From NCBI GenBank assembly GCA_964016885.1, contig OZ024752.1, positions 44,082,001 to 44,146,000 of the forward strand: a stretch of 64,000 nt of DNA. Direction: 5' to 3'. Shown piece by piece: positions 3,600 to 54,893 of this stretch. The DNA is from Eledone cirrhosa (taxonomy: Eukaryota). The first letter of the stretch is position 1; each line of letters opens with the position of its first letter. A program made the translations under genes and the position numbers. The notes beneath the pieces are model-generated. The model had not been told where the DNA came from. It saw only the letters and a program-made list of their open reading frames with translations, and did no database searches.

Positions 3600-4050
3600 A
3601 ACAATTGGACCATATTACCCAATTTTCTACAGACATTGAAATGGAACTTGGTGGGTTCAAATGTGTATTTTTTTACAATAAAATGTGGAAAAATTGTGTC
3701 CTGCTCTGAGAACCTAAAAATGAACGGCTTAACGATACAACCTCTACAGCCAGGTGATAACTATAGGCATCTTGGACAGGATGAGAATGTTAGATATGAT
3801 GGACCCATAATGAGAAGACCACAGGGGTAGAGAGAATGTGGTCATCAGAACTATCAGCATCCAACAAGTATAATACTTTTGATGTGACCATCCGAACACC
3901 AACATTTGGCAGCTGAACTGGTCATTGCAAGAACTAAGATGGATGTAAGGACCCACAAGTTGTTCAGTGTTACTGGAAATTTTATCAATGGTGATGTGGA
4001 TAGGCTTTAGCTCTCATGTAAGGAGGGTGGCCGGGGGCTTAAAATCTACA
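3600..4050 (+). mobile_element. Decayed non-LTR retrotransposon remnant (RT C-terminal region)
   Basis: Translations IQPLQPGDNYRHLGQDE (resembles the RT YKYLG motif) and HVRRVAGGLKS (resembles the LYxxRxxGGRGL motif), in different frames with stops. Confidence 0.4.
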
Positions 4051-4097
4051 TCATACGAGACCCGGGTAACAACTGTGAAACGTGTGTGTATACAAGA

Positions 4098-4288
4098 GGG
4101 CGGTGGAGTGGCAGTATCGGTAGAGGGTCGGACGCAATGCTTTGCAGCATGGAGTTACTGTCCTTTACGATCTGAGTTCAAATCCCGCCGAGGTTAACAT
4201 TGCCTTTCATCCTTACGGGGTCGATAAAATAAAGTACCAGTAATGCACTGGGTAATTGCTGGCCTTGTGCCAAAACTAGAAACAATTA
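4098..4288 (+). mobile_element. tRNA-derived SINE, family 1
   Basis: A-box-like TGGCAGTATCGG, B-box GAGTTCAAATC and core GCCTTTCATCCTTACGGGGTCGATAAAATAAAGTACCAG (resembles the Meta/Sauria-SINE central domain). More than 10 copies in the window. Confidence 0.85.
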
Positions 4289-5489
4289 TATACATATGTG
4301 CAAATGTTTATTGTACTACATATACACACACATGCGTATACAAACACACTGACATAAACACACACACACTGACATAAACACACACACACTGACGTACACA
4401 CACACACACACTGACATACAGACACATACTGACTTATACACAGACACAGTTGTTCCTTGATAAACATATTAGCAAATCAATGTATGTTGTTGCTGATAAC
4501 TGGTGTGTGGAGAGATTGCCTGACGTATCTACCATAACATCGTTACTCTGGTTCCTTGGATACTTAACCAGGTGTGAGAAGACAGATAGAAGTGGACAGG
4601 TAAACGTGTATAATAAATACATTCGCTGCTCAGCCAACCGACTACATTGCTATTTATAAGAGTTAAAAGAAGGAAAAGTGAGTGCTTATTATATTAAACT
4701 AACGACATTGCGGGCTGCTGGACAACTTAAACTGTTTCTATTGGTAATAATAACAATACTTTCTGGCCTACAAGACAACACGTTCTGTGAGAGACTAAAG
4801 TTAAGTGGTAATCTTTGTATTACTGCTTGTTGTTGTTGTTGTGGTGGTGGTTGTTTTATCGAGCCCCGGTGTAGGATAAAACAAAGACAATCTCGATGGG
4901 ATTTTAAACTCAAAACTTTTTATAATATTTTTATCGACTTTCTATCGATTCTGTCATTCAGCACCAGTCAATAATATCAATAATAATTTTGTAAAAAGTG
5001 GACAGTAATATTACAGTTCAGTACTAATACAATAGTATACTGTGAAGTTGAACATAATAAAAGGTTTTGGTGAAAATATAGGAAGAATTTAAAAGATTTA
5101 ACGCATGATTTACAAATGTAGAATATAATATAATAATAATAATAATTATTATTATTTTTTATTGGCCAGGAAGTCCAACATTTAGGGGACAATAAGGCAA
5201 GAACGGTGGGAGACAATAAGACAGGAACGGTGGGAGTTTACAACAACAAACGAGTAAAATTACATACAATAACAATAATTGTTACTAATTGAGGAAGAAG
5301 GCCAACAATTTCGGCGTGAGGGGGAAGTCAATTAAATCACCTCAACACAGGTGTTGAACGAAAAGAACAGAAGGAAATAGTTTTGCGTGGAGTTGTGTAA
5401 AACCAAAACAAATTTGAGGAATAAAAGAGAGAATGACTTCAGATAAAGAAATATAGAATATTTGAAGTGTGAACAGAGGAAGAGAAAGA

Positions 5490-37488: not shown

Positions 37489-37497
37489 TCCTTTTCC
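37489..37497 (+). promoter_or_regulatory. TCT/5'TOP initiator of RPS24
   Basis: Pyrimidine tract TCCTTTTCC about 25-30 nt upstream of the ATG, typical of ribosomal-protein genes. Confidence 0.7.
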
Positions 37498-37521
37498 GGA
37501 ACCTGTACAAGTCCGTCAATC

Positions 37522-40500
37522 ATGGTAAGCTTGCTTTTCTTTTTGAATCTGTGGCGATCGTAGTTTTTTAAAGTATTTTTTTTGTCTATTTATGTTAGGT
37601 TTAATTAATTAACAGTTTAACTTTTCAATAATCGAGATTTTACATTAAAAGGATGATAATTAGCTATACCTTTTACGTTTATTTCTCATTTTTGTACCAC
37701 TCGTCGCCATTTTAGTGTTATGCATGTGTTGTATATGTTTAAATATTCTTCATAATTGTACACAGTCTTTGATAAAGTCGGTGAAAAGCGACATAATTAA
37801 GATATTAAATGATCTAGTTGTGTTTACTATACAGTGGAAACATCTGCCAACTTAAATTAGAAAGTATGGAAGCGGCTTTTTAAATTATTTAAACTTGTTT
37901 CGAAATAAGTAAAAATAATTTTAAAAGCACGTGTTAGATCGTCAAAATTAATAGTTTATTGTAAGTTTATTATTCTACAAGACCTGGCTATACAGTATAT
38001 AAAATCAGTTTATTATCAGATCATCTTTGGTGGTACTCCAAGATTTGGCAGTGATCAGCTTTTATTTTCTGGTGTTTTACAGTAAATAATTTGTTAGGGT
38101 TAAATAAATCTGGAATATCACAGATATAGAACTTCTCTACTGATTTCACTATTACACCGATCGAAACATTTCTAAACTACACAACAAATAGTGGGATCTT
38201 TATTATACGAATAGGTTACAGAGCATAGACTGGGAGTCTATTTTACAGGGACCGGCTACATAGCCTCTTCCTTTATTATAATGAATGCTTTTCTCCCATT
38301 GTAGAATTTTCTGTGAAACATTTTCTAGCTCCTGACTTTTCAACTTTTACATTTTAAAACTTCCTTATTTGAGGGTATATACACTCAAGTAAGTGTGTAT
38401 AATGTATATACACACTTTGATTACCTGTACAGGTAAATATATTAGAATGCTGTTGAGGTGTGGATACATTTTTGGGAACTGTGTGTATATATATATGTAC
38501 ATTATAATATTGGAAGTTCGATTTGCAGCCTTTTAAAATGTGTTTCTATATCGATCAGGCGATCGGATCCGGACTCTTAATCGACAATTGTAAAAAGGTG
38601 TCGGGATCCGATCACTTAATCAAACCAGAGCTGATCGATATAGAAACAGTTGTAATATCGCCATAAAAGAGATGTTACGTGTTATTGGCTTCATTTGATC
38701 TTTTTTCCATCTAAGTTGTCTACTTAAAACGAAAGAAGGCCATTTTATGAACCTTTCAAAAGATGATGTCCATATTTGGGGGGAGTTTAATATAAGATGT
38801 AAACCTTAACTAATTTCGGGGTCTTTCTATCCCTTCAACTCCTCCATTTCAGGCTGAGAGTGCAGCTACTATCCGCACCAGGAAATTCTTAACAAACCGT
38901 TTATTGTGCAGAAAACAGATGGTGAGTAGAATTATTTCACTTTGGTGGATTGGCAGAATCGGTAGAGCGTCGAACATATAGAGTTACGGCCCTTTGCGTT
39001 CTGAATTCAAATTCCGCCGAGGTTTTAAAGTACCTGTAATGCATTGGTGTCGATTAAGTCGACTTCCCCTCCCTTGTGTCTATATAAGAAATCGTCATTA
39101 CAAACCGAGTCGGTAGAGCGTCGGACGTTTTACACAGTTACTGCCCTTGTTCTGAGTTCGATTCCCACCGATTGACGTCCAGTTTCCCTCACTGTCGTAG
39201 GTCTATACTACATGAGCTGGATGATGAATTAATACAGATACTTCCTACATGATTCCCATGTGGCAATACATTGAGTCACTCCAGGTACAGCTGATACTAT
39301 GGGCATGTGGTTCTTCTGGAAACAAGGGGGCCTCAGGAATAAGTGGGTGAAGAAGTAATACATTGTTGACTTAAGGGTCCGCTGTCTTGGTTGTATTGTA
39401 CATTTGGGAATTCTTTCCAATCAATTTCTCGAGTGTTTATTTAACATTGGATGTTCTCCTTCACATCTCTCACCTGTAAGATGCTATATTTACACCACAG
39501 TATGTCTTCGTGACATACTGTGGTATTAATATTACAATAGCTACATTAAACTACTTCATCTAATCGAACCCCTTGGAATATTTGTCCTAGTGGTTTCGCA
39601 ACTGTTGTGACATTATTACTAATATATATATATATATATGTGTGTGTATATATATATATATATAGGGTTGTTGGCTTTGTAATAGCTGTGTTTTAGTTAC
39701 TTTGGTGGCACTACAACGGAATTGGCTGTCAGAAGTGAAAGTAGAAGAATGTGACGTCAATCGTCAACCTTCGTTTATTTCCGTATCACCACCACCACCA
39801 CCATGTGTAAATAAATAGTTTAGCGTAATCGATTTGTTTCCATTCCGAAGCAGTAACGCTTCGAATATTTCAATAAATATTAACGAGTTACTTATGAATT
39901 TCTAAGAGATACACTTATTAAAAATACTTTCATTGCATAGTTCCGTTCGTAAAGGCTTTAATTTACTGTACTACTTGGGAACCTTTTAATAACATACAGG
40001 ATTAAGAAAATAAATTCAACATCTCTAGTTTAATAATTATAACTGCTTCTCGTATTGATGTCCAATGAGTACCAAATAACCACGTAATTTTTCAGAGTTA
40101 TGGATGGTACAATTAAAACAAAACGATAATATACAATCTTATTTAACATGTGAATTAAAAACCACACTATCTGTTACAATTGTAATTAACGTGTAAGCAA
40201 AAGCTTAGATATTAACTTACCCAAGGAAATAACAATAAAGCATATCGATGTAAGTGGAGTTAACTTTCGCCAATCTGCTACAGCTACATTCACGATACGA
40301 GATTTCTGTGAAATCCCCATGGCTAAATCTTCTTTTGCCCCAAAATACAATATGTCAATTATTTGTTCACACTTCAATTTACTATTTTCTAGAAATGTGC
40401 CTTTTCTAACACATAGTAGCGGTAGGGCTGGAAATATCACGATGATTAATTCCATTTACGCTGGAGTGTAATGTATGTTTCCTCTGGAAACAAGGAGCCT

Positions 40501-43500
40501 CTCAGGAATAAGTGGGTGAAGAAGTAATACATTGTTGACTTAAGGGTCCGCTGTCTTAGTTGTATTGTACATTTGGGAAATATTGGTCCTCTTCTTTCCA
40601 ATCAATTTCTCGAGTGTTTAACATTGAATGTTCTCCTTCACATCTCTCACCTGTAAGATGCTATATTTACACCACAGTATGTCTTAGTGACATACTGTGG
40701 TATTAATATTACAATAGCTACATTAAACTACTTCATCTAATCGAACCCCTTGGAATATTTGTCCTAGTGGTTTCGCAACTGTTGTGACATTATTACTAAT
40801 ATATATGTGTGTGTGTGTATATATATTGGGTTGTTGGCTTTGTAATAGCTGTGTTTTAGTTACTTTGGTAATGGAAGGGTTGACTTAACAGCAGAAAAAT
40901 ATCTAGAAAGGGACTTAAGTCAAATGTTTACAGTATTGTTAGTATTAGGCCATTGTAAAACTTTAAAGTTTTAAGGGCTAATATTAAACGTGATACAGGC
41001 ATTGTGCTGTTTTGATGTAGCTTCATATTGTATTCATTCATTTCATTTTATGTCCACTTTCCCTGCTTGCAAGGGTGGGACAGGAACTGATTCTGGCTTG
41101 ATTTCTACAGCTGGATGCCCTTCCTAACATCAACCTCATTTACAATGAGTGCTGGGTGCTTTTTTCCGTGGCACCTCCACGACCACTTTGCAGTGGAATG
41201 ATAGGGACCTCATTCCCTATCATCTCATTTCTACAGCTGAGTAAACTGGAGCAATGTGAAATAAAGTGTCTTGCTCAAGGAAACAACACATCACCCGGTC
41301 TGAGAATTGAACTCACAACCTTTCGATTGCAAGGCCAATGCTCTAACCACTAACCCATGTGCCTCCATATATAGCACTTAATGTATTGCTTGTAGTACTC
41401 AATATAACTTTGTGGAGAAATAAGTTTAATTCTACTGTTAGAACAGTAGACTTCTCTTTCTAGCAAGTTTAGAAGCTATCTCCATGGCTTTTTTCCTGTT
41501 TAGCCTCTTCCCTTGTCTTCTCAATTATTGAAGGCACTCATATACTATTGTAGTACTCTCACTTTATAAAATCATATGCTTTGTGTGTTTGGAATTCTTA
41601 AACAATGCTATTTCACCCCACATTGCCTTCCTATCGGATATAATGTGGACTTATATCTAAAATAGCTACATTAATTACTTCAAAAATCGAGCTACTTTTG
41701 ATATATTCTTGAGTGGTTCCGAGAATGTTGTGACAGCTTAAGTGTGTTCACTTGGTTTTTATCGATGTTTCTTAACTCTTTTAGTTATCACAAGGATTGT
41801 TTAGTTGTAGTTCTCATGTTTAATATATACCTGTACATGTCTGAGGAAAGTTTCACACTTTTAGGAATTTATCTCTCTACACCGTCATTTATATAAAATA
41901 ATTGGTCAGTGTTCTCCCTGTTCTATGTATGGTCTGCTGGTGTCCTTGTTCCCTTTCAATATCAAATTGCTTGGGTTTATACAGTACTAAGTTGATATCT
42001 AAATTATCAGATTTAATACTAATGAGGTTTGGGGAGGGTTCTTTTTCAATTTACCCAATTTTATGGGACTTCATAGTACACTAGTATGTATTAGTACAAA
42101 TTAGTAGTGAAGAAATCTGACACTATCATAACTGGTGGTTGTAATAGTTACATTGCATGGTTATTTGTGAATCCCTTTTATTTCCAGTCAATTTCTTCTT
42201 TTTATTTGTAACTTGGGAAGGTGACTTTCTTTTATCTGACTTTTTCAAATTTAATGAGTTCTAGCTTTGGAAAACAATTTGAATACCTTGAAACCAACTT
42301 GGCCCTCACCTGTAAGATGCTATATTTACACCACGGTATGTCTTCGTGACATACTGTGGCATTAATATTACAATAGCTACATTAAACTACTTCATCTAAT
42401 CGAACCACTTGGAATATTTGTCCTAGTGGTTTCGCAACTGTTGTGACATTATTACTAATATATATATATATATATATCAAATTGTGTTGTTGGCTTTGTA
42501 ACGGTCTGTGATGATTGAGTTGAAAATATCAATCGGTTTGCTGTTTCGTACTTTGCAACACTCTTGTTAACGCAGTTTCATGTTGTGTAGAAATTTGAGC
42601 TTATGTACTACATTACCTGTTTGCTGGTACGATTCAATAGTTGTGGGGACATAAGTTATACTAACGCAAGATCAAATGTGTCATTTTTACAACAGTGCTG
42701 TCTTATGGCTTCTATCAAATTTAGTGACATCACTGTCAGTGGCTTGTTCCTACTAAACTGATTAGCTTCTTGTATGTGTGTTTGGAATTATTCTTATACA
42801 TCTGTTGATGCTATTTCACCCCACATTGCCTTCCTATCGGATATAATGTGGACTTATATCTAAAATAGCTACATTAATTACTTCAAAAATCGAGCTACTT
42901 TTGATATATTCTTGAGTGGTTCCGAGAATGTTGTGACAGCTTAAGTGTGTTCACTTGGTTTTTATCGATGTTTCTTAACTCTTTTAGTTATCACAAGGAT
43001 TGTTTAGTTGTAGTTCTCATGTTTAATATATACCTGTACATGTCTGAGGAAAGTTTCACACTTTTAGGAATTTATATCTCTCTACACCGTCATTTATATA
43101 AAATAATTGGTCAGTGTTCTCCTTGTTCTATGTATGGTCTGCTGGTGTCCTTGTTCCCTTTCAATATCAAATTGCTTGGGTTTATACAGTACTAAGTTGA
43201 TATCTAATGAGGTTTGGGGAGGGTTTTTTTTTTTCAATTTACCCAATTTTATGGGACTTCATAGTACACTAGTATGTATTAGTACAAATTAGTAGTGAAG
43301 AAATCTGACACTATCATAACTGGTGGTTGTAATAGTTACATTGCATGGTTATTTGTGAATCCCTTTTATTTCCAGTCAATTCCTTCTTTTTATTTGTAAC
43401 TTGGGAAGGTGACTTTCTTTTATCTGACTTTTTCAAATTTAATGAGTTCTAGCTTTGGAAAGCAATTTGAATACCTTGAAACCAACTTGGCCCTCACCTG

Positions 43501-46500
43501 TAAGATGCTATATTTACACCACAGTATGTCTTCGTGACATACTGTGGCATTAATATTACAATAGCTACATTAAACTACTTCATCTAATCGAACCACTTGG
43601 AATATTTGTCCTAGTGGTTTCGCAACTGTTGTGACATTATTACTAATATATATATATATATATCAAATTGTGTTGTTGGCTTTGTAACTGTCTGTGATGA
43701 TTGAGTTGAAAATATCAATCGGTTTGCTGTTTCGTACTTTGCAACACTCTTGTTAACGCAGTTTCATGTTGTGTAGAAATTTGAGCTTATGTACTACATT
43801 ACCTGTTTGCTGGTACGATTCAATAGTTGTGGGGACATAAGTTATACTAACGCAAGATCAAATGTGTCATTTTTACAACAGTGCTGTCTTATGGCTTCTA
43901 TCAAATTTAGTGACATCACTGTCAGTGGCTTGTTCCTACTAAACTGATTAGCTTCTTGTATGTGTGTTTGGAATTATTCTTATACATCTGTTGATGCTAT
44001 TTCACCCCACATTGCCTTCCTATAGGATATAATGTGGACTTATATCTAAATAGCTACATTAATTACTTCAAAAATCGAGCTACTTTTGATATATTCTTGA
44101 GTGGTTCCGAGAATGTTGTGACAGCTTAGGTGTGTTCACTTGGTTTTTATCGATGTTTCTTAACTCTTTTAGTTATCACAAGGATTGTTTAGTTGTAGTT
44201 CTCATGTTTAATATATACCTGTACATGTCTGAAGAAAGTTTCACACTTTTAGGAATTTATATCTCTCTACACCGTCATTTATATAAAATAATTGGTCAGT
44301 GTTCTCCCTGTTCTATGTATGGCCTGCTGGTGTCCTTGTTCCCTTTCAATATCAAATTGCTTGGGTTTATACAGTACTAAGTTGATATCTAAATTATCAG
44401 ATTTAATACTAATGAGGTTTGGGGAGGGTTCTTTTTCAATTTACCCAATTTTATGGGACTTCATAGTACACTAGTATGTATTAGTACAAATTAGTAGTGA
44501 AGAAATCTGACACTATCATAACTGGTGGTTGTAATAGTTACATTGCATGGTTATTTGTGAATCCCTTTTATTTCCAGTCAATTCCTTCTTTTTATTTGTA
44601 ACTTGGGAAGGTGACTTTCTTTTATCTGACTTTTTCAAATTTAATGAGTTCTAGCTTTGGAAAGCAATTTGAATACCTTGAAACCAACTTGGCCCTCACC
44701 TGTAAGATGCTATATTTACACCACGGTATGTCTTCGTGACATACTGTGGCATTAATATTACAATAGCTACATTAAACTACTTCATCTAATCGAACCACTT
44801 GGAATATTTGTCCTAGTGGTTTCGCAACTGTTGTGACATTATTACTAATATATATATATATATATATCAAATTGCGTTGTTGGCTTTGTAACGGTCTGTG
44901 ATGATTGAGTTGAAAATATCAATCGGTTTGCTGTTTCGTACTTTGCAACACTCTTGTTAACGCAGTTTCATGTTGTGTAGAAATTTGAGCTTATGTACTA
45001 CATTACCTGTTTGCTGGTACGATTCAATAGTTGTGGGGACATAAGTTATACTAACGCAAGATCAAATGTGTCATTTTTACAACAGTGCTGTCTTATGGCT
45101 TCTATCAAATTTAGTGACATCACTGTCAGTGGCTTGTTCCTACTAAACTGATTAGCTTCTTGTATGTGTGTTTGGAATTATTCTTATACATCTGTTGATG
45201 CTATTTCACCCCACATTGCCTTCCTATAGGATATAATGTGGACTTATATCTAAAATAGCTACATTAATTACTTCAAAAATCGAGCTACTTTTGATATATT
45301 CTTGAGTGGTTCCGAGAATGTTGTGACAACTTTAGGTGTGTCCACTTTTAGTTATGACAAGGATTTGTCATCATTTCACGTCCATTTTTTTCAGCGTTTG
45401 CATGGGTTGGATGGCATTGTTTTTACAAATGACTTGACCTAAATCCATGGCAAACTCTGCTAAAGATGTGTTTCAAAGATGGTTTCTATCTAGCGAATTC
45501 CAGTTATAGCACTTTGGTTGACCCAGGACTGCTATAGATTAATACTTCACTTTGATATTAAATCCAAAACCAAACAGGTTTGTGTATAATTGTGGTCATT
45601 CCAGTTTGTCAAATATTTATTTATAAACCAGAAAATCGAAATTTCGTTGATCCCCTGTTCTGACAGATGCTATGTTTACACCACAGTATGTCTTAATGAC
45701 ATACTGTGGTATTAATATTACAATAGCTACATTAAACTACTTCATCTAATCGAACCCCTTGGAATATTTGTCCTAGTGGTTTCGCAACTGTTGTGACATT
45801 ATTGTTGTTTTACATCTCCTTTCCCACTAATTCTTAATGTCTTCTTCTACATAAAACATTGAAAATTTGTTTACAATTAAATATATTATAAACATTTGAA
45901 TTAACAATCAAACCATCTCTGATAGTTAATGAAAATATCTGGCAAAGTAGGACTTGAGCTAGTCACTTGTTTAGTCCCCAGGTAATTGAAGATGGTGTCA
46001 TACCCAGTGATTGGTGTAACATTGGCATTAAACTGGTGCATCAAGTTATCAGCATAACTGATTAGGAATAAAAATTATATTAGAAAAAATGCAGTTTGTG
46101 GCAGCATGTACCTGTGGTACCTGTCTCTTAGTGAGATAACTGCAGAAGTCTGTAAGAACAAGCCACTATATCTGTTAAGAAATCTAGATGTTTTGGGAGC
46201 AAGTTGGTGTCCACCACTCTTATTGTAGAAATATAAAGTTGTATGGAGAGAAACAAATCAGGCATTGTTTGTTGGACGTAACATTGATGTATATAAACCA
46301 GTTGAGATAAAAGCAATGAGATGTGCCGAGAGCTGCACTGGTACAGACATGTAATGGTCTGTGGATAATGATTGGTAAAATAGACAGAGAATGGTATTGG
46401 TTTTAACTATGACTGGTCTAACAGGATTTGGTTGGTTATAAGTCGTTTTATTCTAGTCTGCATTATTTTTTATTGATACCATCTTGAGATGCTAATGAAT

Positions 46501-48833
46501 GACATTTTCTTTTAGGTTGTAGATGTCATACATCCTGGACGAGCTACTGTTCCTAAGACAGAGATACGTGAAAAATTAGCATCTAAGTACAAAACTACCC
46601 CAGATCTGATTTTCTGCTTTGGATTCCGAACACAATTTGGTGGTGGAAGAAGTACGGGATTTGCTATGATATACGACACATTAGATTTTGCAAAGAAATT
46701 TGAGCCTAAACACAGATTAGCAAGGGTAAGTGGGTATTTTGTTTTTCTCTAAATTTTAAATACTTCATTATATATGTATTATTTTCATTTAAGATAACTT
46801 TTCAAGTATAGTTATTGGCAGTTTACTCAATACTGGATTATATTAAAAAAACACATTGTTATGAAAATATTTAATGAACAACATGGTCTTTTCTTTTAGC
46901 ATGGTCTCTATGAGAAGGGAAAGATAAGCAGAAAACAGCGTAAAGAAAGAAAGAATAGACAAAAGAAAGTACGAGGTGTGGCTAAGACCAAAATTGGTGC
47001 TGGCAAGAAGGTGAGTTTTACCAAGATATTGTTTCTGTTATGTAACTTAATGATCATCAATACTTTTTCTATTTAGTGTTGTACATAATACTGTATTTTG
47101 GTCATTTTACTTCATGAAATATTTTGTTTCATTTTTAGAAAAAATAAGATTCTACTATTTCTATATCTGGTAAGATGGTTATATCTTTGTTTGGTGACCA
47201 CCAGTGTTTCTTTGATGTTGTCTTTCACTTTTCAATGTTTTCACATCTAAATTACTCATAAATAACCTCCCAGCACCAGGCTACTTTTCTAGCATAGATT
47301 TTTTTTTTCTTTTACAAATTAAACCTTTTCATGTCTGTTCAGTTTATATCCTACACTAATGAAGAATTGCATCGACAATATGCTGTCTATATTGTTAGAT
47401 CAATTCTTTTTGCAGCTTTGTTGGAAACTCTTTTTATTGCTAAACCCTTTGGCCATAAATTGGAAGGGCTTGGGTTGAAGCACCCTTGCCCAGAGACACA
47501 AGCATTGGCTGTATGTGATGGGGTTCATGACTAGTCAGTGCTCCTACACCTGTATCTTTGAGATCCATGAGTACACTATCAGAGGTTCATGAATTGTATA
47601 AAACTGATTTATAGTCTTCAGAGATTTCTTTGTTTATTTTTCTACAGGCATGAAAAGGTTTGACTTGTTGTATGTTTCTCTTTCTGCGTGTTACATGCAG
47701 AATATGGCTGTTGCACTTTTTGTCATTAGACCTTGATGTTCTTCATAAACAGTTCTTGTTATGAAGAGCTGAGGTTTGATGAGTCTAAGGTGATCTAAAC
47801 CAGACCAAATAATGTTTTGTGTATGTGAATATATATATATATATATATACACACACTATATATCATGATTTGTTTGAATACTTCAGTAAAAGGTGTATTT
47901 AATGGTCAATGTCCAAATGCCATATTCTGTATGTAGCTCAACATTTAACTCACAGAGAGTATGTGACAGATATTGTAGACTATAGAAATGGCTCTACTTT
48001 ATGATCACCTGCTCTCATATATATTGTTTTTGTTTGGAGTGATAACTAATCTGTTGTTTGTTTACACAATTTTATCATAGAATATTTATATTTTGTGATA
48101 AAACCAAAATTCTGTTTGGGTGTTTTTTAAACTTTAATATACTCAGCCTATAATTAATTAATGTGGAGATGGGGGCTGGTATTCCTTAATGTTAAAACTG
48201 TTGGCTCACATTTAACCCTTCCCCTATCTCACATTTGAGATGGTGGAGGGGTTAAATTATCTGCTATTTAACAGCAAACTAAACTAACATGACGTTTAGG
48301 GGTTCTTATCAGAATACAATATTTTAAGTGTGTTGATAATTTAACTCTTCACATCCTGGCACTAAATGAGCAAATAAGTTTTTAATACTACAAATTTTCA
48401 AAACAATCTGTCCACTAATAAAAAAAATAAGCATTTGAATTAATAACCTAGTTTTAAATATTTTTTGCTAAATCATTAAAGGATGTTAAAAATACATCAA
48501 TAATTTTATAATTTTATGGCGTTACAGTATTGTTCTCCAACTAAATAATATCAACATCTTGTTGATTTGATATTATGTGAGATAAAGCCTTCATTGTGAA
48601 ATGTAAATGCTAAAGAGTTAAAGATATTAATTGTAATATTTTCATTAGTATAGCATGCTATTGGTTGGTGTTTTGAAAGTGTGTCTTTTATATATTTATA
48701 ACATTTTACTACTGAGATCATTACTGATTATATCTTTATTTCCTAATCAGTGCTACTTTTAACTGACACTATTTTATTGTTTAAACTATATTGTTCCTAC
48801 TTAAGATTTGTTTTCTTTTTTTCTTTCTAGTGA
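37522..48833 (+). CDS. RPS24: 40S ribosomal protein S24 (eS24), 131-133 aa depending on 3' splicing
   Basis: Exons 37522-37524 (ATG only), 38853-38921 ([23 protein letters not shown]), 46516-46725 ([14 protein letters not shown]...[35 protein letters not shown]), 46900-47010 (HGLYEK...[13 protein letters not shown]...GAGKK). These are followed by cassette 47139-47169 (KK-stop) and/or a terminal exon starting with TGA at 48831. AATAAA at 48879. Confidence 0.97.
38541..38648. repeat. 108-bp fold-back (MITE-like) element in RPS24 intron 1
   Basis: Perfect 18-bp terminal inverted repeat TGTTTCTATATCGATCAG/CTGATCGATATAGAAACA, plus inner GATCGGATCC/GGATCCGATC. Confidence 0.8.
39481..39615 (+). ncRNA. 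Candidate box H/ACA snoRNA, type A copy 1
   Basis: Hairpin (GCTAT/ATAGC base; ACCACAGTATGTC/GACATACTGTGGT upper stem), H box ACATTA, second hairpin, then ACA+3 nt. About 135 nt, sense in a ribosomal-protein intron. Confidence 0.78.
40658..40792 (+). ncRNA. Candidate H/ACA snoRNA, type A copy 2
   Basis: As copy 1; differs in the hairpin-1 loop (TTAGT). Confidence 0.78.
41031..41366 (-). mobile_element. SINE family 2
   Basis: Near-identical to 30440-30782. Confidence 0.87.
41605..41738 (+). ncRNA. Candidate H/ACA snoRNA, type B copy 1
   Basis: GCTATTT/AAATAGC base, CCACATT/AATGTGG upper stem, H box ACATTA, second hairpin GAGCTACT/AGTGGTTC, ACA+3. Confidence 0.75.
42317..42451 (+). ncRNA. Candidate H/ACA snoRNA, type A copy 3
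   Basis: An A>G change in the hairpin-1 stem keeps pairing as G-U; a C>A change perfects the hairpin-2 upper stem. Confidence 0.78.
42808..42941 (+). ncRNA. Candidate H/ACA snoRNA, type B copy 2
   Basis: Matches B1. Confidence 0.75.
43505..43639 (+). ncRNA. Candidate H/ACA snoRNA, type A copy 4
   Basis: As the other A copies. Confidence 0.78.
43994..44126 (+). ncRNA. Candidate H/ACA snoRNA, type B copy 3
   Basis: As B1, with a loop change and a 1-nt deletion in an A run. Confidence 0.73.
44707..44841 (+). ncRNA. Candidate H/ACA snoRNA, type A copy 5
   Basis: As A3. Confidence 0.78.
45198..45331 (+). ncRNA. Candidate H/ACA snoRNA, type B copy 4
   Basis: As B1. Similarity to the other units falls off just after the ACA. 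Confidence 0.75.
45667..45801 (+). ncRNA. Candidate H/ACA snoRNA, type A copy 6
   Basis: Near-identical to A1 but in unrelated flanks, which defines the conserved RNA boundaries. Confidence 0.8.
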
Positions 48834-49960: not shown

Positions 49961-52220
49961 TAAACTTCAGCTAGTCTGGACTCAGTAATATCCCTACATC
50001 TCTGACTAGTAAGCTGGGTTATATCCACTTAATTTTGATGAGAAATAAAGGCATCTATTGAGTAAAAATAGATTTGTCATTTAACTAAAAAGAATTCTAA
50101 GTCAATTTAAGAAATCACAAGATATTTATTACAAAAATATGAATGGGAAAATGAAAAGGGACGGAATAAAATGTTTGAATTGTGTTAAGTACTGAACAGG
50201 CTAAAGAGAGCAGTGACATGCTTCTTTCTCTGGCCTAGGTGTGCTTCAATGAGAATGAAGATAGTATTTGTCACAGGTTTGTGCAATAACAAAACATGAT
50301 TGTTCTACAAGATATCAGGTGTTCCTAATATAAGGTATTACTCTTGGGTCACAAATAATCGTCTCCCTGCTTATTTTTATTTTGTTTTTCTTTATATATT
50401 AAAAAAAAGTACATTACTAGAAATTCCATAGATTACAAAATAGGATGGGTTGGTGTGTAAAATAAACGACTAATTCTGGGGGGGGGGGGGGGTATCAACT
50501 GAGACAACCTAGAAAAATTACCCATTTTCCACCACCCTCCCTGATTATTTGGGACCCAAGAATAGGTGTTTTATAGCTGGATTCTTCCTAGTATAAACAA
50601 AATGCTCATTATTAAATTGGTACATTTAAACTATAAAAATAAGAGTATAATTCAATGCTGAGAAAAATCACTTCTGGCAACTCAACCCTTTAGCATTTAC
50701 ATTATCAGCAGCCAGTTTAAATGTTAAAGTAATCTTAGGAAATTCAACAACAGTTACTGCTAATTGTTTTGGGGGGGGATCTTATGATCAGTGAAAAATC
50801 TGTTAGCATTTTGGCAGTGAGAGGAGAATGACTGGAATTTTCAACAGGAATTCCATGAAGAATTAAGTCAATCTTTTGATTAAAACAAATTGAAAAACTA
50901 AAGTCAACCTTGTACAAATATAGGCTAAAAACAAAAACCTAATAAGCATTAAACATTTTGAAATTTAATAAAAACAAATACCACTTCCTTAGTAATATTT
51001 GTTAGCAATCTTATATACTGCCTTCAGCATCTCTGAATGTCACAAAAACTCATTCACACTTGATGTTTGAATGACAAATTTAATTTCTCAACAGCAACCA
51101 GGATATCTTATTACACTAACAAGTCTCAAGATTTTACTTTATAAATTTTCTCAAATAAAGTAACATGATACCAACTACATATATAATTAGAGATGTTCAT
51201 TAATTCTAAAAAGTTTAAATCTGTAAATACTGTGTCAGTACAACAGATATAAATATGCTTAGGTCATAGTTTCAACAGAAACTGAAGATAATCTTTCCAG
51301 GGACAAGCCAACTCCAAAATCTGTATAAAGGCTTGTAAGAACAACTACCAAAACACAAAGTCAGCTCACTTTGAAAGATTGAATGTATTGATTTTGAAAA
51401 GAAGCTTTCCAACATGACTGCTGATAAACTGGCTTTGGGAGAGAAACATTTAAATGAATTGGGAAATACTCAGTAAGCTTTGTTGCAGAAGAACATTATT
51501 CAAGCGACTAAAGGCAATATTTCAACAGGAAATATTGAGATACCAGCTTCTTGAATCAGAAAATATAAACAGTAAATCTAATAAATTAGTAACAAATGTT
51601 ATAGTTAATCAAATGAAGTTTGCAATAAGAATCGCAGGGTCAATTTGAAATCTAAATCTGTAAATACTGTATCAGTTTAACAGACGATATGTTTAGGTCA
51701 GAGTTTCCAAAGTTTCAGCTAATTCTAAACATTAAAAGTGTAATGAAATCGCAGCATTTCCATAAACCATTGTCTTTCCAAATACATTGTTTAAAAGACG
51801 ACATTCTATAAAACACTTCATTCAAAGATGCTTTCAAATTCTCTTGATTTCCTTTTATTACCCAATGACAATAAAATAAATTTTTATCTTAAAATTAAAT
51901 TCTTAAATTTAAAAGAAAAAGGAGAGAAAACAAGGAATTCTATTAATAACAATATCAAGGCTCTTCACAACTTATTTTATGAATTTTACCAACTAAAACC
52001 ATTTTTGTAAATAAAGACCCTCAACACACAACAGTAAGATGCTAAAGTGGCCAAAAATGATATTTTTTCAGTCCTTAAAATTCATATAATAATATTTCAG
52101 TCTTCCACTGCAAATATATACTTATTACATGTATTACATTAATTCGATGTTTCTTTATTATCTGAAATATTTCTTTCATGAGAGGGGGGGGGGGGGGTAG
52201 GTTTGGTGTGTAAAGAAATA

Positions 52221-53957
52221 TTATGAACAATACTCTGTTGCTTCTTCGGCTAGTTCAAAACCTTCTTCAATAAAATCAACAAAACTTTGACAGGGACTGG
52301 TTGGTTCAATCACAGATATAGGGCTGATCTCTAAGATTACTCCTGGTTCAATACCAAGTACAATATCTGTTGAGTTGACCTCACTGACATTCATTACTAC
52401 TTCTGGTTCCCTGGCAGGTCTTATATCTGTGGAGTCTGTTGGGTTGACCTCAGCAGATACCATTTCTGTAGCGTATGTTGATTCTGAATCTAAATATGAC
52501 TGAGATTCTATCACAGAGCAGAACAAATCCGACTTTAAAGTCATTTTATCTGTATGATTTTGTACCTGAAAAGTAGAATTTAAGTTAGTTTCATCTAATA
52601 TATTGACGTTAAAAGTGTTTGAGGTTGAATCCGTATTAATAGCAGAATTGTTTCCAAGTCCATTTTCAGAAGAACCAGCCCCAAATTTTATTTCGTGTTC
52701 TATATGATAATAACCGGAGATAGTTTTTGATTTTAACATTGAACAGAGTTGTATGCTTTCTACTGTCTGACAGCCAAAGTAAATATCAAGGTAATCCTCA
52801 TAGACATCGGGATAAATCTTTTTCAATCCCGTCTTTTTAGTTAATTTCTTTCCAACCCTTGATAACTTCATCAGTGTAACGTGGGGTGTGAATTTTGATT
52901 GCTTCTCAACTAACTTCTCGGCATAGAACTGTGTATGAACTTCTTCGGCAATTTCTTCTAATTTTGCAACATGCTCTCCAGGTTGGACTTTGGCAAAAAC
53001 CACTGAATTATTAAAGTTTCCCAGTCCTTGTAAAGGAAGTGTTAACAACACATCTTGATATTTCGGTATCAGTTTAACTCCACAACGATTTAACACTGCT
53101 TTAGCTCGTTCTATATCATCGTCACCCCTTAAATTCATCACAGCAAGTGTCATGTGAAGACTATGAAGAGGTACAACTGCCAATGAATAATTCCCATTTT
53201 TTTTCATTACAGATTTTTGAACATCTTTAAAATTTGTATAAATTTCTTTATCAGAAAACTGAATTGAAATAAAATAGTTAGGTACTTGTCTAGACGGAGT
53301 TTTGCTTTTCTTTTTAGTTCTTGTTTCCTCATCACTGAAAACGGTTAAAATAGAATCATCGCCCGAATCGTTAATAGACGATAACGGGTCATTTCTGTTG
53401 GTAATTATCTGCTGTGTTACATTGTTGTTGCATATTGGAGACACCAACACCTCGCCCTCGGGAATAAACATGTTTTCTACACGTTCTTTATTAATAGCAG
53501 CTTTAGGGCAAAATGCAACTGATTCAGTTTCGTCTGCGGGAGAAATTATATTGAAAGAGTCATATTTAATGTCTGCTACACAAGTGTTTTTATCGGCATT
53601 GAACTGGCTATTAATGAAGTCAGTTTGAGGAACAACCCCGTCACGAATTTTCTCTGTTACTGAGTCTAACAGAGATTTAGGAAGGATACGCGACTTAACT
53701 TTTGAATTTGTCTTTTGTGTTAATACTGAATGAGAAATATCAGTTTTGAGAAGAGGGTCCGAATCGCTAGCAGAGTTTTCTGAGGACAGTGAAGGAGACA
53801 TAGTAAGACATTCGTCACGGGACGAAGGATTGTTGGTTGAAGAAGTATCTGTATCACTATAACCCCAGTCCATGTTTAGAATAAGCTTCGGAAAGTTGGA
53901 CAGTCGTGATAATGTGCGACTAATAACACGATGGAAGTTAAACAATTTGAGTGTCAT
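52221..53957 (-). CDS. AKAP7-like 2H (LigT-fold) 2',5'-phosphodiesterase domain protein, intronless, 550-578 aa
   Basis: Single 578-codon ORF with PNYFISIQF, two HxT motifs (LHMTLAVM; FTPHVTLMKL) and FGCQTVESIQLCSM...GYY, characteristic of the AKAP7 phosphoesterase domain. Long acidic Ser-rich flanks. An alternative start at 53873 (MDWG) has a better Kozak context. Confidence 0.88.
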   Translation of the reverse strand: MTLKLFNFHRVISRTLSRLSNFPKLILNMDWGYSDTDTSSTNNPSSRDECLTMSPSLSSENSASDSDPLLKTDISHSVLTQKTNSKVKSRILPKSLLDSVTEKIRDGVVPQTDFINSQFNADKNTCVADIKYDSFNIISPADETESVAFCPKAAINKERVENMFIPEGEVLVSPICNNNVTQQIITNRNDPLSSINDSGDDSILTVFSDEETRTKKKSKTPSRQVPNYFISIQFSDKEIYTNFKDVQKSVMKKNGNYSLAVVPLHSLHMTLAVMNLRGDDDIERAKAVLNRCGVKLIPKYQDVLLTLPLQGLGNFNNSVVFAKVQPGEHVAKLEEIAEEVHTQFYAEKLVEKQSKFTPHVTLMKLSRVGKKLTKKTGLKKIYPDVYEDYLDIYFGCQTVESIQLCSMLKSKTISGYYHIEHEIKFGAGSSENGLGNNSAINTDSTSNTFNVNILDETNLNSTFQVQNHTDKMTLKSDLFCSVIESQSYLDSESTYATEMVSAEVNPTDSTDIRPAREPEVVMNVSEVNSTDIVLGIEPGVILEISPISVIEPTSPCQSFVDFIEEGFELAEEATEYCS

Positions 53958-54893
53958 TTTAAATGAATTAAGTACGCATGCGTCTAAATATTGTCTTGTC
54001 GTTGAGAGGGAACGGTGTCAGGCAACACCGGGTTCCAAACTGAATATATCATAGTATCAAAGTTGATACATAAAGGCAGCAGTAAAATTTGAGTCTGTCA
54101 GATCTGTGCTAAATATTGAAATAAATGTATGATTAACTCTGGTGTGTTTATAAAATTTCATCAAAAATGTACTCTAGCTCCTTAAATGATAATTTCCTTT
54201 TAATAATAAATAAAAACTACTGTAGATGGCACTTCTAAACTTTCTCAACGAGTTGGGTGATATAGGTAGTTCATATTTATAATGGTTAGTAGTGGAACAT
54301 GCGGTCAGGATGTACGTTAAAGAGGAAAGCAGTTCTAAACAGGAAAAATAGCTTTTTATTTCTTTTAGATTGGAAAAAAAAGGGGAGGGTAGTGGCCAGG
54401 ATCTTCCAGATTTTTCTTTTATTGGTTTGGTCTAGAGCAGACGTTCGCAAATTTTTTGAGCCATCGCCCGACCCCCCTATGGCCACGTAATAAAACTCCG
54501 TGCCCCCGCCCCCTCATTTCCAGAGAGACCTACCTATACGCAAATTGTAAATAATATATAATCGTTAATTTATATATAATGTATACTATGAATAAATAAA
54601 TATGTATTTTTTTATTTTATTATATTTATATATATGTATTATTTGATATTCAATATAGTATATCATCTCTAGCGCCCCCCGCCCCCCCCCCCCCCCTGGA
54701 TCTTCTCAATGCACCTCTCTCCCGTCATCAACACCACCATTCATAAACTGGAAGATTTATTTGTCATTCTTGCATATCTCTTTGACAAAAGCCCCTCTTG
54801 CAGTTAATTACTGCCTAACAATAAATTACCTCCTTAACAAAGGAGATCGGATATGAGTCCTTGAAAAGATAAGACTTTCACATTTTATTTTAT

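Follow-up and report, generated by a model that had tools for sequence, protein, structure and literature searches.

Box H/ACA guides are expected to form at least 8 pairs with their target, at least 3 of them on each side of a uridine, from a pocket lying 14-16 nt from the box (PMC6800473), and the same distance is given as usual elsewhere (PMC5778458; bioRxiv 2021.07.15.452550). In vertebrates, pockets have been gained and lost after duplication through point changes in either the guide or the rRNA, with the hairpins evolving independently, and several pairs of paralogues have switched targets, among them SNORA10/SNORA64, SNORA2/SNORA34 and Xenopus SNORA58/pug18S-324 (PMC6984369). Clusters are also known: in Drosophila, several H/ACA genes can share an intron of a host gene related to translation (PMC3089462; PMC11028025). 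Neither the clustering of H/ACA genes in introns nor the divergence of pockets in duplicated guides is therefore new.

The locus reported here combines features of both systems. As in the Drosophila clusters, a single intron of a host gene with a role in translation carries multiple H/ACA genes, but there are ten copies, arising from a recent 1.2-kb tandem unit. Like the switched-target paralogues it points to duplication followed by independent change of one pocket, including by way of a change in the rRNA; those examples, however, are vertebrate and experimentally mapped, whereas here the targets are predicted, the two types alternate within a single intron and the rRNA is shifted towards C. 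A literature search covering journals open without subscription found no description of this family and no snoRNA study for this lineage, and neither the search nor PMC6984369 yielded an RPS24-hosted snoRNA.

The window, a stretch of 64,000 nucleotides (contig C12, 44082001-44146000, part of a 3.0-Gb genome), contains a 133-135 nt unit ten times over, always on the + strand; six of these copies belong to type A and four to type B. The size of the genome, its microsatellites and its long GC-rich 18S suggest an octopus-like cephalopod. All lie in the sense orientation within an intron of the expressed host gene RPS24. Removal of this intron is seen in a contig from run X4 which connects 38920 to 46515 across GT..AG, and the 5' loose end of this spliced contig at 38852 matches the letters of RPS24 exon 1. 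On the minus strand, downstream of RPS24, a long open-looking coding stretch occupies approximately 52150-53960.

37490..37525, + strand: RPS24 exon 1, pyrimidine-tract start and ATG; putative exon start, placed from the sequence
38853..38921, + strand: RPS24 exon 2, open 23-aa frame, splice joint in run X4
38922..46515, + strand: RPS24 intron 2, 7594 nt, GT..AG, housing all ten copies
46516..46725, + strand: RPS24 exon 3, Pfam PF01282 Ribosomal_S24e, E 2.1e-30
39481..39615, + strand: type A copy A1
40658..40792, + strand: type A copy A2
41582..45347, + strand: recent tandem array, 1.19-1.20 kb B+A unit three times plus one extra B
41605..41738, + strand: type B copy B1, box H 41668-41673, ACA 41733-41735
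42317..42451, + strand: type A copy A3, box H 42379-42384, ACA 42446-42448
42808..42941, + strand: type B copy B2
43505..43639, + strand: type A copy A4
43994..44126, + strand: type B copy B3, hairpin 1 with a 1-nt deletion
44707..44841, + strand: type A copy A5
45198..45331, + strand: type B copy B4
45667..45801, + strand: type A copy A6, flanks unrelated

The tandem B+A units are 96.8-98.1% alike by self-BLAST, and the depth of the array contig is about three times that of single-copy DNA (runs X1-X3, from one DNA sample). Outside the array, the bodies of A1 and A6 are 98% alike whilst their flanks, at 47-55%, do not rise above the background of the aligner, which suggests selection or conversion on the unit itself. 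The two types are themselves related: A3 and B1 share 74% identity, with a global score of 132 against 38.7 ± 7.2 (maximum 65) in 1000 dinucleotide shuffles, and the motifs of the common scaffold proposed in the initial annotation are present in both B1 (41605-41738) and A3 (42317-42451). Elsewhere in the genome, the sole paralogue found is the 3' half of a type A unit on contig C8 (L021 1501-1578 = G000:C8:16006736-16006813), which carries downstream intron flank and sits directly behind an ATG microsatellite, suggesting a DNA-level or intron-derived insertion. Screening of 19 of 27 two-mismatch pattern matches with model R1 gave no further paralogue, all scoring at most 19.1 bits, and none of the four matches in a metagenome scan had the scaffold of types A and B.

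All ten copies have box H (ACAUUA, of the ANANNA type) in the hinge, with ACA at the base of hairpin 2, and sequence conservation stops about 3 nt past ACA. Both types are more stable than expected (folding z-scores of -3.46 for B and -5.59 for A; 0 of 200 shuffles equally stable), and 96% of cells in a structure alignment of the copies are paired. Type B folds as a whole into the hairpin-hinge-hairpin-tail form. The halves of type A do so only partly, and its whole-molecule minimum-energy fold is an alternative to the two-hairpin form. The earlier proposal that pairing is kept while the sequences differ holds, though mostly by wobble: across the structure both sides have changed in only 2 of 31 pairs and pairing is maintained mainly through G-U changes. 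In the upper stem of hairpin 2, on which that proposal had drawn, three of eight pairs vary on one side and none on both, and one pair is broken in three A copies. The ten copies are very probably box H/ACA snoRNAs, and types A and B are most likely ordinary rRNA pseudouridylation guides amplified in one RPS24 intron.

Neither type can be filed in a described family. Rfam returned no match in the window at gathering score, and scans by E-value gave weak matches only; mir-552 and similar models were rejected, as they reflect a 13-bp stem only. SNORA72 (U72, RF00139; the 5.8S Psi55 guide) aligns weakly over its full length (19.7 bits, E 0.43), but it remains below its cut-off of 43, has no genome match and is not accompanied by any 5.8S site among the top target matches. 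The 5.8S of the species itself (L022 3985-4143) presumably has C at the human Psi55 position, judging from an alignment by eye. The SNORA4, SNORA72 and SNORA52 models found no match in the genome among the approximately 50 candidates scored for each, a number which makes these negatives weak. As they do not match the SNORA52 and SNORA4/snR83 models, the units are not assigned to those families despite the predicted similarity of their pockets.

Pairing scans were purpose-written and covered the 18S, 5.8S, 28S, U1, U2, U4, U5 and U6 of the species' own genome. The snRNA genes form long tandem arrays: U1 on C1128, U2 at C3:307349256-307453739, U4 at C1:136381483-136489833, U5 at C9:32792224-32823858 and U6 at C19:31780605-31840331. 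The 18S (L022 575-3450) is 2876 nt long with 60% G+C and the 28S (L159) 5115 nt. For comparison, four of 47 eukaryote rDNA contigs (L049, L057, L075 and L079) were picked for their long 18S/28S stretches. At 65 of the 461 uridine columns common to these four sets the rRNA of this species has C, so that the loss may extend to further conserved pseudouridine sites.

All but one of the 27 assembled 28S copies are interrupted at the R2 site; the intact unit and the copy used at first are 99.7-99.9% alike, and target scans give the same results with both. The insertion that was read (L022/L023, 28S 3701-4939; L134-L158) is 1239 nt long with no stop-free stretch above 137 aa. Comparison of 25 copies shows several distinct 3' ends. 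The insertions are probably non-autonomous R2-type elements of several families, and the main rDNA array is likely to be collapsed in the assembly.

Hairpin 1 of the two types presents different pockets with a common predicted target in 18S.

41611..41651, + strand: B1 hairpin-1 pocket, 5' guide 41611-41617, 3' guide 41649-41651; predicted target 18S U2038; 19 nt from box H
42325..42365, + strand: A3 hairpin-1 pocket, 5' guide 42325-42329, 3' guide 42361-42365; predicted target 18S U2038; 18 nt from box H

Scored jointly for A and B, 18S U2038 takes first place among the 1937 own uridines; ranked by energy, it leads when the values of the two types are added and comes third when the weaker of the two partners decides. 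Type A pairs 5+5 and type B 3+6 (9-10 pairs), although the pockets differ at several bases. By itself this joint score is not significant, as 10 of 60 shuffled-target runs were equally high. The position corresponds to human Psi1347, which has been mapped in human and Xenopus and is guided by SNORA4 and also by Xenopus SNORA67 (PMC6984369), and a further guide, snR83, directs yeast Psi1290 (PMC9045821). Hairpin 1 of both types is thus predicted to pair with the 18S site of SNORA4, of the second pocket of Xenopus SNORA67 and of snR83. We take yeast Psi1290 to be the equivalent of human Psi1347, and the 3' hairpin of snR83 to be the one guiding it. That same snR83 hairpin gives the lowest Rfam E-value for type A (E 0.026), a weak resemblance at 17.7 bits against a cut-off of 75 which uses the same sequence information as the U2038 pairing. 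Human rRNA carries at least 104 pseudouridines (PMC9198423), from which we estimate the chance of landing on a known one at roughly 1 in 20.

The distance of the hairpin-1 pockets from box H, given in the initial annotation as a non-canonical 18-19 nt, was confirmed for both types and applies to the common target, outside the 14-16 nt range and unlike SNORA4 and snR83. Human SNORA22 nevertheless works with a pocket at 18 nt (PMC6984369), and the surplus 3' strand of hairpin 1 could loop out to meet the distance ruler. Another candidate, 28S U1831, fits both types 4+4 and was set aside, being unmodified in human and Xenopus. In hairpin 1 of type B (window 41617-41660), the pocket strands are by eye complementary to two abutting 18S stretches, UUAGA and GGUGAAAU, together 13 nt, with no uridine between them. 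Judged from their sequences, the two types seem redundant where hairpin 1 is concerned, and at hairpin 2 they seem to have diverged. Convergence of both families on the same rRNA uridine had been set against diversification from the outset; a common uridine is predicted at hairpin 1 and not at hairpin 2.

For hairpin 2, the register first proposed, with the pocket about 14 nt from ACA, leaves 13 nt; opening two weak pairs brings the distance to 15 nt, and this register yields better targets. The targets predicted at first, GUUGCG-Psi-N-GAUUAGA for A and UUCUCG-Psi-N-GAUUUU for B, have no match in the 18S, 5.8S, 28S, U1, U2, U4, U5 or U6 of the species.

41683..41725, + strand: B1 hairpin-2 pocket, 41683-41690 with 41718-41725
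42395..42438, + strand: A3 hairpin-2 pocket, 42395-42401 with 42431-42438; 15 nt from ACA; prediction only

With a shift of two bases, the type A guides UUCGC and UCUAAUC form 12 of 12 Watson-Crick pairs with GCGAA-U-GAUUAGA. In human 28S this is the Psi1731 site, for which SNORA52 is the guide (PMC6984369). The pocket of A is therefore an exact complement of the site of SNORA52 (ACA52), but A has no match to the Rfam model (RF00419), the 28S of this species has C at the target and type B lacks the complementarity. In yeast, the equivalent 25S Psi1004 is guided by snR5. The site has U in nine of nine other eukaryote contigs, with the exact sequence in six of nine. In this genome the equivalent base is C in all 23 of the 28S matches, and no site of the conventional type with U was found, so the A pocket would be unable to make that pseudouridine. 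It is nonetheless unchanged in all six copies.

Under the 14-16 nt rule the Psi1731 site is the top match of A in three of the four comparison sets, where 3, 4 and 5 of 100 shuffles did as well, figures to be read with the facts that the rule was applied to this hairpin after the match was known, that four pockets were tested and that the three sets share one site. Under loose geometry the match is at chance level, 62 of 150 shuffles scoring equally, and the site is lost when all four sets are required, since one of them, L079, carries a variant base. With its register kept, the A pocket also forms 14 bp (8+6, 11 of them Watson-Crick) with own 28S U1118 (U1112 in the copy first used), and the next-best own site falls far below it. 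This score was reached by 5 of 300 shuffles with the geometry chosen afterwards and by 2 of 120 under loose geometry, which, given that four pockets were tested, makes U1118 a suggestive rather than a strong candidate on sequence grounds. Its equivalent is not a pseudouridine in human or Xenopus (PMC6984369). In both pairings of A, with the Psi1731 site and with U1118, 2-3 bases beneath the upper stem stay unpaired. A different candidate for A, 18S U2627 (human U1672), was rejected: its 5+5 pairing on a conventional 18S shrinks to 3+3 in this species, and the position is modified in neither human nor Xenopus. Window positions 42396-42407 of type A are identical over 12 nt to a sense stretch of human 28S lying about 100 nt upstream of Psi1731. 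That stretch natively pairs with the flank of the target, which would account for about half of the identity.

Type B breaks both A pairings, with the Psi1731 site and with U1118, adjacent to the target. It has no target above chance in own rRNA and snRNA (174 of 300 shuffles as good, and 21 of 120 under loose geometry). Its best raw matches, to the U5 Sm region and to U-rich expansion segments, were dismissed as low-complexity and within chance (21 of 120); a 6+4 pairing with own 18S U838 is likewise within chance. When A and B are scored jointly at hairpin 2, the best value, 8.0, is equalled or exceeded in all 60 shuffled-target runs (mean 9.2). The lack of a good joint site supports divergence of the pockets after duplication, and guide diversification as the initial annotation described it is thus borne out at hairpin 2, where A and B have no good common site in own RNAs. 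Its further suggestion, that one family may be an orphan guide re-targeted to a divergent rRNA variant or a non-rRNA, survives in part: B looks like an orphan at hairpin 2, and no second rRNA variant was found. The 18S segment offered there for B as the region of human Psi863/866 is by alignment human U892, about 27 nt away (PMC6984369). In this species it reads CAUCCG-UC-GGUCUC and B pairs with it only 2+3, below the minimum of 3 per side and 8 in all.

A model that accommodates these observations would have the units trimmed from the excised RPS24 intron and, as class knowledge suggests, loaded with dyskerin, Nop10, Nhp2 and Gar1. Hairpin 1 of A and B is predicted to guide own 18S U2038 (human Psi1347, yeast Psi1290) with the extra 3' strand looped out. 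Hairpin 2 of A would derive from a guide that once served the conserved 28S site (human Psi1731), leaving own 28S U1118 as its best remaining target, whilst hairpin 2 of B would be an orphan whose pocket has drifted and which persists thanks to hairpin 1. This set of targets, with 18S U2038 common to both types, A a former Psi1731 guide now facing U1118 and B an orphan at hairpin 2, is held with moderate confidence as a whole. It is a further and doubtful step to suppose that A has been re-aimed: U-to-C drift would have erased the Psi1731 site, A would now write a lineage-specific pseudouridine at 28S U1118 with its old guide bases and a matching outer extension, and the B pocket would have moved to a non-rRNA target. 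Similarly improbable is that both types are plain redundant guides with one common site per hairpin, their pocket differences representing neutral drift. In that case own 18S U573 (human U422) or U2058 (human Psi1367) would be the uridine addressed by the invariant AAUCGA and U-Y-C. Both types do pair 3+6 with U573 at exactly 15 nt and with no unpaired bases, and this site, conserved in the four eukaryote sets, would account for the invariance of AAUCGA; human U422, however, is unmodified in human and Xenopus (PMC6984369). U2058 is a human pseudouridine (PMC6984369) with which both types pair 4+2 or 4+3, yet this falls below 8 contiguous pairs, and the joint hairpin-2 score, no higher than in any shuffled run, argues against a common site in general.

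Equally unlikely, in our estimation, both hairpin-2 pockets may be relics which modify nothing, that of A from 28S Psi1731 and that of B from 18S U892, with the U1118 match due to chance and the RNAs preserved for the sake of hairpin 1 or made uniform by gene conversion. By eye, B pairs 5+6 (three G-U) with the vertebrate U892 segment. U892 is modified in amphibians and zebrafish (PMC6984369) and is the top match of B in L075, but not in L049 or L057, and the match is at chance level. The replacement of conserved uridines by C at 65 of 461 columns would suit such a loss of targets, but a perfect match should decay in a pocket that has no target, and that of A has not changed in any of six copies. 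Far less probable is a scaRNA-like role, in which type A would guide U2 Psi39 and B would have lost that function. Human U2-U39 is a guided site (PMC6984369), and hairpin 1 of A pairs 7+3 with own U2 position 40, its equivalent, at 13 nt from box H; against this, the pairing is possible only with 6 nt bulged out beneath the upper stem, and its score is within chance (28 of 120 shuffles reach the best match of A hairpin 1). The loops of type A read UUCG, UUAG or UUAA, and by eye contain no CAB box, of which UGAG is the consensus. The least probable of the explanations considered, and one to which we give very little credence, is that the assembly lacks an additional rDNA type of the conventional kind, whose Psi1731 site is served by type A. 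The pocket of A is perfect for a conventional site, and an assembly probably without its main array, with a single 28S copy of 27 uninterrupted at the R2 site, might have missed such a type, but no match of the conventional type exists in the genome and the uninterrupted unit, almost identical to the others, also has C.

As the process is known from vertebrates, the locus taken alone changes little. Its main interest lies, with hairpin 2 of type A read as a descendant of a Psi1731 guide, in a guide pocket which still matches a uridine that its own genome has lost. Three questions follow from it: whether a pocket at 18-19 nt from box H functions, whether A has been re-aimed to 28S U1118, and whether hairpin 2 of B has any target. 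With so many conserved uridine columns now C, the question of lost targets extends to many other guides. If re-aiming proved true, the shift across the rRNA would make this lineage a natural experiment in which a guide set either tracks or fails its substrate.
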